Source of the DNA: Candidatus Gastranaerophilales bacterium
Lineage (GTDB): Bacteria > Cyanobacteriota > Vampirovibrionia > Gastranaerophilales > Gastranaerophilaceae
DNA: 64,000 bases
Direction: 5' to 3'
Assembly: GCA_944325175.1 (NCBI GenBank)
Contig: CALUYZ010000005.1
Coordinates: 15,484 to 79,483 of the forward strand
The notes beneath the pieces are model-generated. The model searched no databases. It was given only the letters and a program-made list of their open reading frames with translations, and was not told the DNA's origin. Within the stretch, counting starts at the first letter, position 1. Each line of letters opens with the position of its first letter. Shown here in pieces: positions 11,402-61,670 of this stretch. Made by a program: the position numbers and the translations under genes.

Positions 11402-11429
11402 AAAAAAGCCGCATATTTTGCGGCTTTTT
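11402..11429. terminator. Bidirectional rho-independent terminator
   Basis: gccgca-tattt-tgcggc stem-loop flanked by an A-run and a T-run, between convergent hisF and the 11447-12301 gene. Confidence 0.75.
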
Positions 11430-11446: not shown

Positions 11447-12301
11447 TTAGCTGAAATACTGGAACGTTCTTTCGATATTTGATTGGATGATTGAATCGAC
11501 TGATTCCATTTCTTGTTCTACTGCTTTTTTCTGTGTTTCGATTTGATTTAATTTATTTTCAAGGCGGGTATCTAATGTGTTAACTTTTGCCATTGCTGTG
11601 TTGTATTCAGCTTGGGCAGCTGCGTCATCTTCCGTATAATATCTGGATGTTACGGTTGATAATGATTCAGGGGTTTTTCTTACGTAAAATTCATCGTTTA
11701 CTTTTAATTCGCCTTCATCATTAGTAACAGTTGAAACTATATGGCTTGTTGAATTAGTATTGTCTGTGTCTGAATTGTCTTGTGTCCATAATTGATATGA
11801 GCCGTTTGCAATGCCGTATTGAATTGGTGTATTGGAGCCGTTTGTATTCATTGCTTCAATTACATTTTGATAATATTTATACAATGCGGGGTTTTCATTT
11901 TTTAAATCATCATTAAATGGCTTTAATTCGCCGCCTACTTCAACTTCATAAGTCATTCCATAGGTTGAATTTCCGTCATCATCACCTGAAGCTGTAGCGG
12001 TTGCCTTTACAATAGGTGTTCCGTTTGAATCTGCAATAATAATGCTTGCAGAGCCAACTCCACCTGTTTGTGCTTTCGCAAGTGCATCAAGTGTCATTGT
12101 TTGTTGCTGTGTTTCACCATTTTCAAATACACGACAGGTATAGATTGTGTTTGTCGTTTTGTCAGAATATTCCTGAGCAATAGTTTCTTGTTCCTGAGCA
12201 AGTAGCAAACGTTCCTGTTCTACATTTTGTGCTTGTAGTTCAAGAGCGTCATTTTTTGCTGTCAGTAATAATAGTCTTGCTTGTGATGCTGCTAAACCCA
12301 T
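11447..12301 (-). CDS. Uncharacterised coiled-coil protein, long member of a three-gene family with conserved termini and an inserted Gly/Thr-rich core
   Basis: The N-terminus MGLAASQARLLLLTAKNDALELQ..QE...LA aligns with MGW..LSLRKM.L.QR...LE.RL...SQE of ORFs 60646 and 61185. The C-terminal LE....IETQ..A...E..S.D...QS also aligns. GGTGG RBS upstream. Confidence 0.7.
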   Translation of the reverse strand: MGLAASQARLLLLTAKNDALELQAQNVEQERLLLAQEQETIAQEYSDKTTNTIYTCRVFENGETQQQTMTLDALAKAQTGGVGSASIIIADSNGTPIVKATATASGDDDGNSTYGMTYEVEVGGELKPFNDDLKNENPALYKYYQNVIEAMNTNGSNTPIQYGIANGSYQLWTQDNSDTDNTNSTSHIVSTVTNDEGELKVNDEFYVRKTPESLSTVTSRYYTEDDAAAQAEYNTAMAKVNTLDTRLENKLNQIETQKKAVEQEMESVDSIIQSNIERTFQYFS

Positions 12302-12370
12302 TTTATACCACCTTTATATTATGTTAATTCTTTTCTTTTAAGGACATATATAGTAATAAAAACTATTTTT

Positions 12371-12420
12371 ATATACGAAATACATAATTTCTATATATTG
12401 TTACATTACTTTACATTTTG
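12371..12420. promoter_or_regulatory. Conserved non-coding block, copy A (matches 60493-60540)
   Basis: Manual ungapped alignment gives about 40 of 48 identical positions, including TATATACGAA and TGTTACATT. Lies 70-120 nt from the start of the 11447-12301 gene. Confidence 0.5.
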
Positions 12421-12641
12421 TTTTTATACCTTTTTTATCCTTACTGCACTATTTTGATACTTTTGTCGTTTTCTTGGTATTGTTAACGACAAAATTTAAA
12501 AAAAACTTTAATCTGATGTTTTTTAGCTTAATATTTTGTAACATCTCTATAATTAATTAAGTCTGATTTACCTAATTCACATAATTGCATGAACTGTTTT
12601 ATTTGAATTATAATAATACTGATATTTTTTATGAGGTGTTT

Positions 12642-14577: not shown

Positions 14578-17127
14578 TTATTTATACTCTACAAATTTTT
14601 CATTCTGAAAAATATAAGGGGTTATTTTATCTTCTTTAATTTTAAACTTAATTGCGCCCGTTTCTTTTGTGTTAAGAACTTTAGAATAATTTCTATAAAG
14701 GTCTACGGTTTCTTTGTTTGGATGATTATAAGGATTTTTTCCCGTTAAAATTACCGTATATTTTGGCTTTAATCTATTGAGCATTTTTCTGTCTGCCGTT
14801 CGTTTTGCACCATGGTGAGATGCTTTTAGAATGTCTATATTTTTGGGCATAAACTTTTCGATTGAATGAAAACTTTTGGTCGGCACATCTGCAAGAAATA
14901 AAAATTTTAAATTTCCGTATTTTACAAAAGTCACAGTCGATGAATCATTTTTTGACAGTTTGTTTTCAGATTTTGGAACATAATTTACAATTTCAACATC
15001 TTTGTATGAAAATTTCTGTTTTGTATATGGAATTATGTAGTTAACTTTATTTTTCTCTATGTAATTTTTAATATTGCAAGAATTTTTGGAATTACATTCA
15101 AGTTTTGGTATAACAAGCTTGTTAACTTTTATTTCTTCCAATAAATTAATTAAACCGCCCGAGTGGTCTGCATCGTAGTGGGTTACGATTAAAAGTTCTA
15201 TTTCTTTTATATTTTTGTCGTAAAGATATTCCAATGTTATTCTTTTTGCACTCGAAGAATCAGGATAGATAAACCTTCCCGTATCAATCATTATGTATTT
15301 ATTGTCTTTTGTTTTAATTAAACAATTATCTGCATTGCCTGAATCGAAGAATATAATTTCACCATTATTGCAGTCAAATTTTGCAAGCGAAAATGTAAAT
15401 ATTATAAAAACTATTATTAATAATTGATTCAAATATTTATTTTTAAACAAATGTTTTATTGAAACAAAAAGAACGGTTATAAAAAGATAATAAAAAATTA
15501 TTTGTACAATATCGGGTGACGGAACTTTTATTATTGAATTATTTAGTGAAGAAAAATAATTTGAAATATTTAAAATTATCTGAATCATAAAATTTAAAAT
15601 AATGTCAAAAATCGGTATTATATAATCTGAAACAATCGGTATAAAACAAAAGGCGGAAGATATAAACCCTAAAAAGCTTACTATTCCTATAAATGGCACC
15701 ACTGCTATGTTTGCTAAAATTGAATATATTGAAAAAGTGTTAAAATAATACGCCTGCAATGGCGATGCCCAAATTTGCGCAACAAAAGGCACCATTATAA
15801 TACAAGTAACAGAAATTGGCGAAAACATCATAAGAAAATATTTAACAATTTTATTATAAGGTTTTATCTTTTTGATATATTTTCTTTCTTTTTCTTCAAG
15901 ATTTTTAGTTAAGCTCGGAATACATATTAATAAACCAAGTGTTACAAGAAATGAAAGCTGAAATGCTACATCATTTATAAATTCCGGTTTAAAAATTAAA
16001 ATAAGCAAGCCTGCCATAAATATTAAAGAAATGCCGTTTGCTTCTCTGTAGATAAATTTACCGATTAAAATAAGAATAAGCATAACGGATGCTCTTACAA
16101 TAGAGGGTGGAAAACCTGTCATCATCATATATAGCATAACAATAAAAAGACCTGATAAAATCTTTAATCTGTAGTGAATATTTATAAAATGCACTACATA
16201 AAGCCACATAGAAAGAATTAATGCCACGTTTAAACCCGAAGCTGCAAGTAAATGCAGCAAACCTGAATTTATAAAAGATTCCCTTACTTCATCCGGCGGG
16301 TTTATTGCGTCATCTCCAAAAACAATTCCGCCCAAAATTTCTAAATTAGGCGAGCGAACGTATTTGCCATGGGTTTGTATGATTTTATCCCTTAAATCGT
16401 TCATATTTCTTGTAAAGCACAAGTTGAAATAATTTAATTTGTTTATAAAGCCTTCTTTTCTTCTAAGTTCTTTTATGTTGGGAGATTGAATTAAACTGTA
16501 TTCTTTTGCATAAAAAGTTTTTAAAATTCCCTTGTTGTTTAAGAATTTTTGATAATTAAATTGCGAGGGGTTTGTTGCTTTTGTTGGTGTTGTTAATATG
16601 CCGTTTGCTTTTATTTTGTCCCCGTATTTTGGAATATAGTTATCTTTATTAACTTTTATTGTTGCAAGAATTTTTGTTTTCTCAATTTTGTATGTTTTAC
16701 CTTGTATATCAATTTTTTCCACATCAAGAGGAAACTTGCAGCTTTTATTCTTTTCTTTGCAAGTTGGAATATTTGCAACCGTGCCGTTTATTTCCGTATT
16801 CTTAACAGTTTCTATTCCGTAAAAATCGTCATAAACCGTATAATTTGACTTTGCGCAAAGAAATCCGAAACAAAATAAGAAGTATATAAAAACAATAAAA
16901 GTGGAAGAAATGTATCTCTTGTTCTCTTTTAAAAATAATTGAAAAATTAAAATTAAAAGAATTAAAGCCGTAAATATATTAGCTATAATTAATTTTTCAC
17001 CCGAATAAAAAGCAATTAAACCCATTGTGTAAGATGTAAATAAGACAATACAAATTAAGGGCTTATTTTCTTTTAGGTTAAGTAAAAAATCTTTCAGCAT
17101 AAAATATTTATCCCATATCAATGCCAC
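14578..17127 (-). CDS. comEC: DNA internalisation competence protein ComEC/Rec2 with C-terminal metallo-beta-lactamase domain
   Basis: Polytopic membrane core with the LLAASGLNVALI competence-domain motif. C-terminal MBL motif HYDADHSGG and SHHG. Confidence 0.88.
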   Translation of the reverse strand: MALIWDKYFMLKDFLLNLKENKPLICIVLFTSYTMGLIAFYSGEKLIIANIFTALILLILIFQLFLKENKRYISSTFIVFIYFLFCFGFLCAKSNYTVYDDFYGIETVKNTEINGTVANIPTCKEKNKSCKFPLDVEKIDIQGKTYKIEKTKILATIKVNKDNYIPKYGDKIKANGILTTPTKATNPSQFNYQKFLNNKGILKTFYAKEYSLIQSPNIKELRRKEGFINKLNYFNLCFTRNMNDLRDKIIQTHGKYVRSPNLEILGGIVFGDDAINPPDEVRESFINSGLLHLLAASGLNVALILSMWLYVVHFINIHYRLKILSGLFIVMLYMMMTGFPPSIVRASVMLILILIGKFIYREANGISLIFMAGLLILIFKPEFINDVAFQLSFLVTLGLLICIPSLTKNLEEKERKYIKKIKPYNKIVKYFLMMFSPISVTCIIMVPFVAQIWASPLQAYYFNTFSIYSILANIAVVPFIGIVSFLGFISSAFCFIPIVSDYIIPIFDIILNFMIQIILNISNYFSSLNNSIIKVPSPDIVQIIFYYLFITVLFVSIKHLFKNKYLNQLLIIVFIIFTFSLAKFDCNNGEIIFFDSGNADNCLIKTKDNKYIMIDTGRFIYPDSSSAKRITLEYLYDKNIKEIELLIVTHYDADHSGGLINLLEEIKVNKLVIPKLECNSKNSCNIKNYIEKNKVNYIIPYTKQKFSYKDVEIVNYVPKSENKLSKNDSSTVTFVKYGNLKFLFLADVPTKSFHSIEKFMPKNIDILKASHHGAKRTADRKMLNRLKPKYTVILTGKNPYNHPNKETVDLYRNYSKVLNTKETGAIKFKIKEDKITPYIFQNEKFVEYK

Positions 17128-58412: not shown

Positions 58413-58565
58413 ATGCGTCGCACATTAGAAGGCACAAAAAGAAAAAGACAAAAAGTTTCAGGTTTCAGAGCTAGAATGGCTACTCCGGAAGGTCAAAAAA
58501 CAATTAACAGACGTCGCGCTAAAGGTCGTCATAAAGTAGCTATTGTTGCAAAAAACCGTGCTTAA
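58413..58565 (+). CDS. rpmH: 50S ribosomal protein L34 (absent from the supplied ORF track because it is under 60 aa)
   Basis: Manual translation gives MRRTLEGTKRKRQKVSGFRARMATPEGQKTINRRRAKGRHKVAIVAKNRA, with the L34 signature GFRARMAT...RRRAKGR. AAGGAG RBS. Directly precedes rnpA. Confidence 0.92.
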   Translation: MRRTLEGTKRKRQKVSGFRARMATPEGQKTINRRRAKGRHKVAIVAKNRA

Positions 58566-58923
58566 TAAAAGAAACAGATTAAAAACAAACTCATCATTTA
58601 AAGCAACATACTGCCAAAACAGAGTTGTATCTGATGAGTTTTTTGTTTTGTTTGCCGGTAAAAATAAACAACAAGATGATGTTGAAACAAGAATCGGGTT
58701 TGTTGTAAGCAAAAAAATTGACAAAAGAGCGGTTGTAAGAAATAAAATTAAACGAAGAATGAGAGAAAGTTTTAGGGTTTACCTGAAAGACAGGAAAATT
58801 CCCTACATGAGCCTTATTTTAACCGCAAAGGAAGCTTCTAAAAATGCCAATTTAGAAATTACATTAAAAAGTGTTTACAAATTGATGGATAAAATGGCAA
58901 ACAAATTTATTCAGGAGTATTAA
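58543..58923 (+). CDS. rnpA: Ribonuclease P protein component
   Basis: RNR-like basic motif KRAVVRNKIKRRMRE. Classic rpmH-rnpA arrangement. The start is uncertain (TTG 58543 or GTG 58558). Confidence 0.85.
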   Translation: MLQKTVLNKRNRLKTNSSFKATYCQNRVVSDEFFVLFAGKNKQQDDVETRIGFVVSKKIDKRAVVRNKIKRRMRESFRVYLKDRKIPYMSLILTAKEASKNANLEITLKSVYKLMDKMANKFIQEY

Positions 58924-60317: not shown

Positions 60318-60351
60318 ATACAAATTATATCAAAATATATACATAAAGAAA

Positions 60352-60375
60352 AATCGCAATTAATAAATTGCGATT
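60352..60375 (-). terminator. Hairpin with U-run on the minus strand
   Basis: aatcgcaat-taataa-attgcgatt. On the minus strand it is followed by TTTTCTTT. Confidence 0.5.
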
Positions 60376-60492
60376 AATGCCTTTTTCTCTATAAGTCCCA
60401 AAGCCATAGTAGCGGCTTTTATAAAATTCTTGATTATTCTTTCATAGCAAGGGTTTTGGTTCGTTTGCCTTACATTATAATTAAAACATTTT

Positions 60493-60540
60493 ATATATAC
60501 GAATTTCATATTTTATATATACTGTTACATTTCTTAATAT
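60493..60540. promoter_or_regulatory. Conserved non-coding block, copy B (matches 12371-12420)
   Basis: See 12371-12420. Lies 105-155 nt upstream of ORF 60646. Confidence 0.5.
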
Positions 60541-60645: not shown

Positions 60646-61134
60646 ATGGGCTGGGTAACACTGTCACTCAGAAAAATGGTTTTGACTCAAAGAGTATCAC
60701 AATTAGAAAACAGATTACTTCATTTGAGTCAAGAACAACAATCATTAGCAAATAGTTCTTCATACACAGAAAGAGCTATAGGTCTTGAAAAACAAGAAGC
60801 TTATTCTTCTCTTATGAACAATTACTCTGGCAACCTGAACAATATATCAGACTTTGTATCAAGCGGAAACGCAAGCGACCCTGCAAGCTTAATTCAATAT
60901 CAAGCAGAACTGCAACAACAACAGCTTGATTACATGTACAACAAAATGATAATTGATTCAGTGTTTACACAAAAAGAACAATCACTACAAGATGAAATAA
61001 ACAACAAACAAACTTACTTATCACTGGAACAAGAACAAGTAGAAACCCAATTAGAAGCAGCAAGAGCTGAACTTGAACAAATGGATGAAGCATGTTCACA
61101 AGATATTCAATCAAGTACAATTAGCTTAGTATAA
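60646..61134 (+). CDS. Uncharacterised coiled-coil protein, short family member 1
   Basis: MGWVTLSLRKMVLTQRVSQLENRL... and ...LEQEQVETQLEAARAELEQMDEACSQDIQSSTISLV. Paralog of 61185 and 11447. GGAG RBS. Confidence 0.7.
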   Translation: MGWVTLSLRKMVLTQRVSQLENRLLHLSQEQQSLANSSSYTERAIGLEKQEAYSSLMNNYSGNLNNISDFVSSGNASDPASLIQYQAELQQQQLDYMYNKMIIDSVFTQKEQSLQDEINNKQTYLSLEQEQVETQLEAARAELEQMDEACSQDIQSSTISLV

Positions 61135-61184: not shown

Positions 61185-61670
61185 ATGGGCTGGGCAGCAT
61201 TATCATTAAGAAAGATGACGCTCAAACAAAGAATCAACAACTTGGAACAAAGGCTTGTAAATATAAGCCAAGAACTCCAATCAATGTACGATTCGTCATC
61301 TTACGCACAACAAGCATTGGGCGTTGAAAAATCAAACGCACTTGCAAACTTACAACAAACATATTCAAACAATACATCAACATTAGCCGGTACATACCAA
61401 GGCGCAACAGATACATCTGCATTAAATGAATACAACACGGCATTGCAACAAGAACAACTTTCTTTAATGTATAATCAAATGATTCAAAACTCATTATTTA
61501 CAGCAAAAGAATCAGCAATGCAAGATTCAATCAACCAAGCAGAAACTCAATTACAATTAGAACAAGAACAAGTTGAAACACAATTAGAAGCAGCAAGAGC
61601 TGAATATGATTCACTCGATCAAGCTTGCTCACAAGATATTCAATCAGGCGCTATAAGCTTGGTATCATAA
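61185..61670 (+). CDS. Uncharacterised coiled-coil protein, short family member 2
   Basis: MGWAALSLRKMTLKQRINNLEQRL... and ...LEQEQVETQLEAARAEYDSLDQACSQDIQSGAISLVS. AAGGAG RBS. Tandem with 60646. Confidence 0.7.
   Translation: MGWAALSLRKMTLKQRINNLEQRLVNISQELQSMYDSSSYAQQALGVEKSNALANLQQTYSNNTSTLAGTYQGATDTSALNEYNTALQQEQLSLMYNQMIQNSLFTAKESAMQDSINQAETQLQLEQEQVETQLEAARAEYDSLDQACSQDIQSGAISLVS

Follow-up and report, generated by a model that had tools for sequence, protein, structure and literature searches.

A gene on the minus strand at 11447..12301 of a 64,000-nt stretch of the Candidatus Gastranaerophilales contig CALUYZ010000005.1 (the whole stretch that was analyzed, hereafter called the window) encodes a 284-residue protein that, judged by sequence comparison, belongs to a very large and very diverse family, nearly all of whose loci are restricted to the Gastranaerophilales. 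Its members are predicted to consist of a stalk of two conserved terminal helices that carries a variable domain at its tip, and their genes are strongly enriched for canonical sigma-28/FliA promoters, which points towards the flagellar regulon. The Gastranaerophilales are uncultured, nonphotosynthetic gut relatives of Cyanobacteria that are widespread in animals and in nonindustrialized human populations, and to our knowledge almost nothing has been established about their cell surface. The family is among the most diversified gene families of these bacteria and has no annotation anywhere.

The original prediction for this gene had held that the ends of the 284-residue protein resemble those of two short proteins encoded in tandem elsewhere in the window, namely, B1 (162 residues; 60646..61134, plus strand) and B2 (161 residues; 61185..61670, plus strand). 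Against a threshold of 1e-3, pairwise BLASTP was borderline, with E values of 0.011 and 0.001 at the C terminus and 1.6 at the N terminus, and profile comparisons settled the matter in favor of the prediction. An hhalign comparison of the alignment of the long proteins (family A) with that of the short proteins (family B) gave a probability of 93.5% and an E value of 2.2e-7 over 49 C-terminal columns. Compared alone, profile against profile, the N termini matched over 36 gap-free columns starting at Met1 (P = 1.8e-5), the corresponding result for the C termini being a match over 50 columns (P = 2e-9), versus P values of 0.015 to 0.41 for controls that paired N with C ends, reversed sequences, or mid-regions. 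Furthermore, in a scan of all open reading frames (ORFs) in the window, the best nonself match of each family's hidden Markov model (HMM) was the other family (E values of 7.8e-6 and 8e-5). Many family A members from related loci matched the family B HMM, the best at an E value of 4e-9, and a protein intermediate between the two families was found at one locus (L021). These comparisons place the 284-residue protein, B1, and B2 in one family related through both end helices. The alternative, in which the long proteins have no kinship with the short ones and their ends share nothing but a coiled-coil composition, is compatible with the marginal pairwise scores; it conflicts with the in-register profile matches and their coiled-coil controls, the reciprocal HMM matches, the family A members matching the family B HMM, the intermediate protein, and the MG[LW] start common to both families. 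It has already been largely refuted and is now scarcely credible.

At an E value of ≤1e-3, homologues numbered 379 for the 284-residue protein and 72 for the short protein, and wherever public sources recorded a name, that name was “hypothetical protein.” An exhaustive search with HMMER, covering 1.84 billion cluster representatives, returned 3,660 clusters at 50% identity (E ≤ 1e-3), or 2,379 at E ≤ 1e-10, and in a collection of one genome per species, relatives were encoded at at least 463 loci. Nearly all of these loci came from metagenome-assembled genomes (MAGs) labeled Gastranaerophilales, Melainabacteria, or “Vampirovibrio,” with few labeled otherwise, and the source guts were those of humans, mice, chickens, goats, rabbits, and horses. 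Among 290 unique members, which ranged from 189 to 773 residues (median, 280), the positions that were invariant or at least 84% conserved were M1, G2, L3, A5, S6, Q7, R9, L11, L13, T14, A15, R16, E21, Q25, I27, L34, Y45, and N51 at the N terminus and, counted from the end, D-60, D-59, A-56, A-54, Y-52, L-38, A-25, E-21, N-10, F-5, and F-2 at the C terminus. The middle keeps a skeleton of YRLxDxxGxIVV, LQxxLRNGxY, WxxxSWD, and YYTEDD around variable loops and insertions of widely differing size. The middles of 60 long members had no recurrent Pfam domain; one had EF-hand or dockerin-like repeats. One 974-residue protein from the search of representatives (P0284) holds about five whole family modules in tandem in a single polypeptide, like covalently linked subunits, each module consisting of an N-helix fragment, a tip domain, a YDTTDDAAA motif, and a C-helix. 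The MGxxxS start of the long proteins recalls the eukaryotic N-myristoylation motif, which family B does not fit.

The AlphaFold model of the 284-residue protein (mean predicted local distance difference test [pLDDT] score, 80.9) has a helix at residues 2 to 49, a mostly beta middle at residues 52 to 221, and a helix at residues 224 to 283. By model, alignments, and composition, the gene can be divided into three parts, all read from the minus strand: the conserved N-terminal helix (residues 1 to 49; 12155..12301); a beta-rich variable tip domain with a partly conserved skeleton (residues 50 to 220; 11642..12154); and the YYTEDDAAA motif followed by the conserved C-terminal helix, which ends in ...NIERTFQYFS (residues 221 to 284; 11450..11641). 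The tip domain is composed of 13.5% T, 9.9% N, 8.2% G, 8.2% S, and 7.0% D. The earlier description of the middle as a Gly/Thr/Asn/Asp-rich, beta-looking insertion therefore holds for its composition and its modeled strands; it does not hold for a pure insertion, since a conserved skeleton is kept. B1 was modeled as a plain hairpin of helices 2 to 73 and 79 to 158 (mean pLDDT, 84.6), and on these models the ~160-residue proteins are the same hairpin minus the tip domain. Mutual information placed 13 of the 20 top N-C residue pairs on a single antiparallel diagonal, with an equally wide band holding 15% of all pairs; the pairs on the diagonal include R31/E-37, N51/D-60, L20/I-31, and K17/H-27. 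Models and covariation together indicate that the two terminal helices form an antiparallel hairpin stalk of ~7 to 9 nm, whose base holds both termini and whose tip bears the variable beta-rich domain. A second diagonal (N-terminal residues 38 to 49 with C-terminal positions -37 to -27) was considered as a sign of staggered subunit packing and was rejected, as its 6 of the 30 top pairs versus ~3 expected were not above chance. No signal peptide is evident by inspection, as had been claimed, residues 2 to 49 being a single conserved helix that covaries with the C-terminal helix.

The order of VKOR-DsbA, the family gene, and hisF-GGDEF is conserved across genomes whose copies of the gene are only 35% identical overall, and identity along the gene could be followed with that of the neighboring HisF. 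In loci whose HisF is 90% identical to that of the window, the termini are 98 to 100% and the middle 60 to 63% identical; at 81% HisF identity, these values are 92 to 98% and 39 to 40%, and at ~76%, they are 56 to 77% and 6 to 27%. The proposal that conserved end helices flank a core evolving like the hypervariable region of flagellin is thus borne out across the orthologous loci, where middle identity falls to 6 to 63% as the termini stay higher, with alignments, AlphaFold models, and identity profiles in agreement on the conserved ends and variable core. Two genomes (L096 and L002) have whole-locus nucleotide identities to the window of 80.2% and 80.3%, yet their middles are 90% and 63% identical, respectively. 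Because these equally distant genomes differ so in the middle, its divergence does not follow that of the genome, the same behavior as that of flagellin alleles, and the 90% identity in L096 suggests allele-like replacement. In a sliding-window comparison of the three closest loci, the last ~50 nt of the 5′ untranslated region and the first ~200 nt of the gene were 86 to 98% identical, above most flanking housekeeping genes. Relative to L096, synonymous divergence was 0.33 in the N-terminal segment and ~1.0 elsewhere, and the ratio of nonsynonymous to synonymous divergence (dN/dS) was 0 at the N terminus (dN = 0), 0.058 in the middle, 0.007 at the C terminus, and 0.044 for the gene as a whole. 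These values show extreme purifying selection on the stalk, and the tip diverges far faster than the neighboring housekeeping genes. In addition, one MAG (BRZ_PB__bin5) carries two copies of an 870-bp unit that comprises 119 bp of upstream sequence and a 249-residue family gene; the copies lie at unrelated chromosomal sites (L024 and L025) and share 99.5% identity, which indicates a recent duplication or gene conversion. Tandem family pairs were present in four loci, and genomes contain several family copies.

When the upstream regions of 87 family genes were aligned, many were found to contain a perfect match to the sigma-28/FliA consensus TAAAGTTT-N11/12-GCCGATAA, which is the consensus of Escherichia coli FliA promoters (PMC4183435). 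The strict pattern TAAAG-N13-16-CCGATA[AT], searched on both strands of 2.87 Mb, yielded 31 matches, 19 of which lay no more than 250 nt upstream of family A genes and on the same strand, versus 0.3 expected (P = 5e-31). Boxes were also scored over 16 positions in the upstream 250 nt of every gene, for 85 family genes and 956 other genes. Scores of at least 14/16 were obtained for 23 family genes versus 3 others (Fisher P = 1e-23), and scores of at least 13/16 were obtained for 39 family genes versus 10 others. The positive control, the fliS gene of a Vampirovibrionia locus with the order flagellin-flaG-fliS-fliT, had a 15/16 box. The family boxes lie at two fixed distances, 55 to 81 nt and 173 to 231 nt, and their spacers are unrelated across subfamilies and loci, a pattern that functional promoters, and not common ancestry, would be expected to produce. 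The gene in the window has a sigma-28-like box, TAAAGTTT-N12-GTCGTTAA, at 12483..12510 (minus strand), ~210 nt upstream of the ATG, which carries weight because its position is conserved across orthologous loci, where the boxes score 14 to 15/16.

The explanation that we favor, tentatively and as a chain of steps a little short of probable, is that the family consists of proteins of the late flagellar regulon that are exported although they lack a Sec signal, use the stalk for docking or self-assembly, and hold the variable tip exposed. The proteins would be expressed together with late flagellar genes and, because they have no Sec signal, would leave the cell through the flagellar type III export gate, which is complete in about a quarter of the Gastranaerophilales, the others having a reduced form. 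Once exported, the proteins would dock or self-assemble by their conserved stalk, and the variable tip would be presented to the host, to phages, or to other bacteria. In the genome of the window, where the sigma-28 box is degenerate, a family-specific upstream element described below (motif 2) probably drives the 284-residue gene. If the proteins are exported with the flagellar regulon, they would form a major set of variable antigens or adhesins of the Gastranaerophilales, would be candidate cargo for the reduced apparatus of flagellar export kept by most genomes, and would represent a design that arrived independently at the flagellin principle, in which conserved helices serve assembly and the exposed domain is exchangeable. 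A more specific form of the proposal holds that gut Melainabacteria possess a second class of extracellular proteins, one that depends on the flagellum, is specific to the lineage, and bears no sequence relationship to flagellin. Thousands of sigma-28-controlled hairpin subunits would pass through a complete or reduced gate, polymerize into or decorate a surface filament by their stalks, and display hypervariable tips as exchangeable antigens or adhesins. In this full form, the proposal is decidedly doubtful.

Several observations weigh against export and surface display. Export, localization, and polymerization are entirely inferred. The 64-kb window contains no flagellar genes, and when the neighbors at 80 loci were clustered, family genes were found in housekeeping surroundings, and no operon partner, chaperone, or secretion gene was conserved beside them. 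The box of the window gene scores only 14/16, with GTCGTTAA as its -10 element, and in the window taken alone the box is not above chance, with 3 matches versus 1.98 expected; the family B genes of the window have no convincing sigma-28 box. Positive selection on the middle is not shown, dN/dS being 0.058 in the only close pair. Residues 2 to 49 were modeled as a helix (mean pLDDT of the first 10 residues, 74), whereas disorder is usual in the signals for flagellar export. Finally, sigma-28 regulons also contain cytoplasmic proteins. This last point leads to the main rival, in which the family belongs to the motility regulon but is never exported, its coiled-coil proteins being cytoplasmic or peripheral to the membrane and serving, for example, as adaptors, regulators, or scaffolds, with the stalk binding a common partner and the tip domain giving variable specificity. 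The lack of a signal peptide and of linked secretion genes would fit such a protein, as would the core chromosomal, syntenic, and monocistronic nature of both loci and the purifying selection overall; the invariant polar stalk residues S6, Q7, R9, T14, R16, E21, and Q25 would suit a fixed binding partner, and Foldseek sets the 162-residue model beside intracellular hairpins (SMC arms and a soluble chemoreceptor), at E values of 0.17 or worse. What this rival accommodates poorly is the diversity: 3,660 clusters at 50% identity, tips of 0 to ~600 residues, allele-like replacement, and several paralogues per genome are unusual inside cells and typical of exposed proteins, and one inserted domain is EF-hand or dockerin-like. 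A protein that stays in the cell is unlikely on balance, though it is a serious candidate.

Comparison with known families left the proteins without a relative, in keeping with the original prediction, which had recognized none. Searches of Pfam, NCBIfam, PHROGs, and PADLOC with the three window proteins and with long or viral-contig members gave no match above cutoffs, and a sequence search of the PDB with single sequences and profiles gave no significant match. Foldseek found nothing at an E value of ≤1e-3 in the PDB (both models) or in BFVD (long model); its matches were generic coiled-coil hairpins only, with PDB E values of 0.17 or worse, and the best BFVD match of the long model had an E value of 1.5e-3 and a TM-score of 0.11. 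In the libraries searched, there was no confident profile match to a characterized nonfilament family.

The flagellin-like logic attributed to the protein stood in part: helical ends are conserved around a fast-evolving core, as in flagellin, and homology to flagellin was not found. Neither Flagellin_N (PF00669) nor Flagellin_C (PF00700) matched the three window proteins at an E value of ≤10, and neither matched any of the 60 long members. The hhalign comparison with a flagellin alignment (Vampirovibrionia plus E. coli) gave P values of 0.16 to 0.39, and comparisons of the A1 and A2 alignments with 14 E. coli proteins (FlgB/C/E/G/K/L, FliD/E/H/J/K/S, and FlgM/N) gave P values of 0.04 or worse each. 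The best flagellin in Foldseek, 7sn9_A, ranked 36th (E value, 0.26; TM-score, 0.26), and the four-helix D0/D1 fold was not encountered. Canonical flagellins have been reported in Melainabacteria (PMC3787301), and one lies beside flaG-fliS-fliT in a Vampirovibrionia locus (L109). Because canonical flagellins exist in the lineage, and with the hhalign comparisons negative, the idea that the family is the melainabacterial flagellin was rejected. The likeness to flagellin (FliC/Hag) is otherwise extensive. It includes conserved N- and C-terminal helices that pack against each other and carry a hypervariable domain distally, the lack of a Sec signal, termini that are conserved to the last residue, an allele-like middle at a fixed locus, duplicated genes, and, at the level of the family, sigma-28-type promoters. 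The differences are that no sequence, profile, or significant structural similarity was detected, that the family stalk is a single two-helix hairpin of ~50 and ~60 residues rather than a four-helix D0/D1, that canonical flagellins coexist with the family in the lineage, and that polymerization of the family is only predicted. The design principle and promoter class are already known from flagellins and other sigma-28-controlled proteins; for the family itself, no relative was detected, and its stalk is simpler than D0/D1.

Other named systems provide partial parallels. In Campylobacter, FlaC, FspA, CiaI, and the Fed proteins are nonflagellin proteins that are coregulated by sigma-28 and secreted via the flagellar apparatus. 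As a lead, the family resembles them in its sigma-28-type promoters, the lack of a Sec signal, the gut habitat of the organism, and genes scattered outside flagellar operons; the comparison is by description only, and in contrast to them the family is much larger and varies much more, and its termini show a degree of conservation well beyond that typical of flagellar export signals. EspA and the needle subunits MxiH/PrgI (T3SS_needle_F) share an antiparallel two-helix hairpin, conserved termini, and small domain-less members with the family, but the family helices are about twice as long and no injectisome genes were seen; the type III secretion needle family (PF09392) matched B1 with 17.1 bits versus a cutoff of 29.4 (E value, 0.0062), over residues 64 to 93 in the loop region only. 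B1 and B2, as equal-length tandem paralogous hairpins, suggest a heterodimeric four-helix bundle like that of WXG100/Esx proteins. There was, however, no Pfam match, no WxG turn motif was noticed in B1, B2, or the family B consensus, some relatives have a single B copy, and the organism has two membranes and showed no type VII secretion genes. PspA/Vipp1/ESCRT-III proteins also have an MG start with a hydrophobic N-terminal helix and a long helical hairpin, and Vipp1 is present in the cyanobacterial relatives. PspA/Vipp1 (PF04012) gave no match at an E value of ≤10, the hairpin plus helices 4 and 5 of that fold was not matched in structure, the Foldseek comparison with Vipp1 (8qbr) having an E value of 1.2 and a TM-score of 0.28, and we know of no hypervariable tip domain in that family.

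A further alternative is a surface adhesin, toxin, or other effector that is released independently of flagella, through vesicles, lysis, or an unknown system, and whose hydrophobic N-terminal helix might act on membranes as in alpha-helical pore-forming toxins. The first 15 residues are indeed about two-thirds hydrophobic (L3, A4, A5, A8, L10 to L13, and A15), the long helical stalk carries a beta-rich head whose variability is compatible with receptor binding, and tandem pairs occur in binary toxins as they do here. Nevertheless, no adhesin and no toxin of the ClyA, Hbl, or Yax type gave a structural match at an E value of ≤1e-3, the stalk has two helices only, and the enrichment for sigma-28 promoters would be left unexplained; we consider this alternative improbable.

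In 8 of the 80 loci, a family member had flagellar or chemotaxis genes no more than 8 kb away, namely, two FlgF/G-like rod genes, fliA, fliS-fliT, fliF, flhB, and cheA/W. These neighbors are suggestive and not decisive, and in L102, the distance of ~6.3 kb between fliS-fliT and a family member is not informative. Guilt by association across the 80 loci was abandoned as a line of argument, as it yielded only subfamily-level synteny with hisF, GGDEF, VKOR-DsbA, a BadF-type ATPase, asparaginase, and rpmH-rnpA-PRK. A complete flagellar set occurs in only 3/9, or ~25%, of Gastranaerophilales genomes (PMC4040986; bioRxiv 10.64898/2026.04.24.720558). According to the latter study, the other genomes retain flhB, fliI, and flgG, and its authors suggest that these genes have a secretory role (bioRxiv 10.64898/2026.04.24.720558). 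If the family does form or decorate surface filaments, it would give a function to these “orphan” genes in about three-quarters of the genomes. In three Gastranaerophilales-type loci (L102, L107, and L108), fliS-fliT is preceded by genes for an 82- to 84-residue protein and an acidic protein of 704 to 723 residues that has a CarD-like C terminus and no Pfam family; in another Vampirovibrionia lineage (L109 and L110), flagellin-flaG precedes fliS-fliT instead. The acidic protein is encoded one or two genes from family A members in 12 loci.

Members of 337 to 773 residues were also found on 12 viral contigs of IMG/VR (L081 to L092), and in at least 6 of these the family gene lies directly downstream of a TerS-portal-TerL module and a gene for a 76-residue protein. 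A phage-derived or phage-interacting protein, be it prophage cargo, a decoy, a receptor, or an exclusion factor, would explain these contigs, and a variable domain would fit an arms race. The 12 contigs stand against at least 463 chromosomal loci, however, and the loci in question look like prophage borders: in L082, the gene after the family gene is host rsmI, as identified by its N-terminal sequence, which puts the family gene at such a border. In addition, no PHROG, PADLOC, or BFVD match was obtained, and the window gene and its orthologues have a stable housekeeping context. Phage origin was dropped in view of these apparent borders, and any phage-related role is very improbable. In L088, the family member is followed by Mu-like transposase and baseplate genes, and in L089 to L091, a 15/16 sigma-28 box lies 73 nt upstream of the family gene.

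The 284-residue ORF (start, MGLAASQARLLLL; stop codon, 11447-11449) is a real, monocistronic, free-standing gene, because it has its own ribosome-binding site, a 283-bp upstream region that belongs to it alone, and its own hairpin terminator. The strong Shine-Dalgarno sequence AAAGGTGG (12308..12315, minus strand) lies seven bases 5′ of the ATG and is kept across orthologous loci. The terminator, a GC-rich hairpin between A and T runs at 11403..11429, just 3′ of the gene, is bidirectional and common to the gene and hisF; the VKOR-DsbA gene lies on one side of the gene and hisF-GGDEF on the other. Between the sigma-28-like box and the start codon is motif 2, TGTAAAGTAATGTAACAATATATAG-N14-GTATATAA-N4-AGTTTTTAT (12356..12415, minus strand), which is promoter-like or operator-like. 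Its general pattern is TGTAA-N6-TGTAAC, then TATA[CG]NNN-N11-GTATATA[CA], and then TGTTTTTAT; the core, also written TATAC-N14-GTATATAC before TGTTTTTAT, occurs upstream of ~30 family genes in related loci. The motif is nearly exclusive to family A upstream regions, at 81 to 112 nt from the ATG, with 30 of 39 matches to the core and 19 of 20 matches to the 3′ half. Its 8-11-8 geometry resembles that of a sigma-28 promoter, and the TGTAAC element is also found 5′ of canonical boxes in other subfamilies. Motif 2 is probably a second promoter, perhaps for a FliA-like sigma factor of 209 to 223 residues that is encoded near some family genes. The sigma-28 boxes and the family-specific motif 2 provide testable regulatory elements.

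B2 is a tandem paralogue of B1 (54% identical), and the pair is kept in L104, with a single B copy in L105 and L106. The order rpmH-rnpA-PRK-DNMK, B, and FAD oxidase-MatE is conserved across the order Gastranaerophilales with one or two B copies; in the window, rpmH (L34) and rnpA lie at 58413-58923, just upstream of the family B locus. Two matches to the sigma-28 pattern upstream of family B genes, in L105 and L106, were dropped as ambiguous, as both lie in a conserved stretch whose opposite strand may encode a small RNA. Rfam gave no match in the 5′ region of the 284-residue gene or in the family B intergenic region. Between the DNMK-like kinase gene and B1 is a second copy of motif 2 (60480..60537, minus strand), which points away from B1 to a stretch of ~130 nt that is ORF-less and ends in a terminator. 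The region at 60345-60537 (minus strand) has a same-strand intrinsic terminator ~130 nt beyond motif 2 (hairpin at ~60353-60377 plus a U-run), no ORF of ≥50 residues, no Rfam match, and a fold z-score of -2.55, and the same layout is present in L104 and L105; the region may encode a small RNA that is coregulated with the family. At L107, a 71-residue nonfamily ORF (16106-16321, minus strand) beside the DNMK-like kinase gene has a 16/16 sigma-28 box 61 nt upstream.

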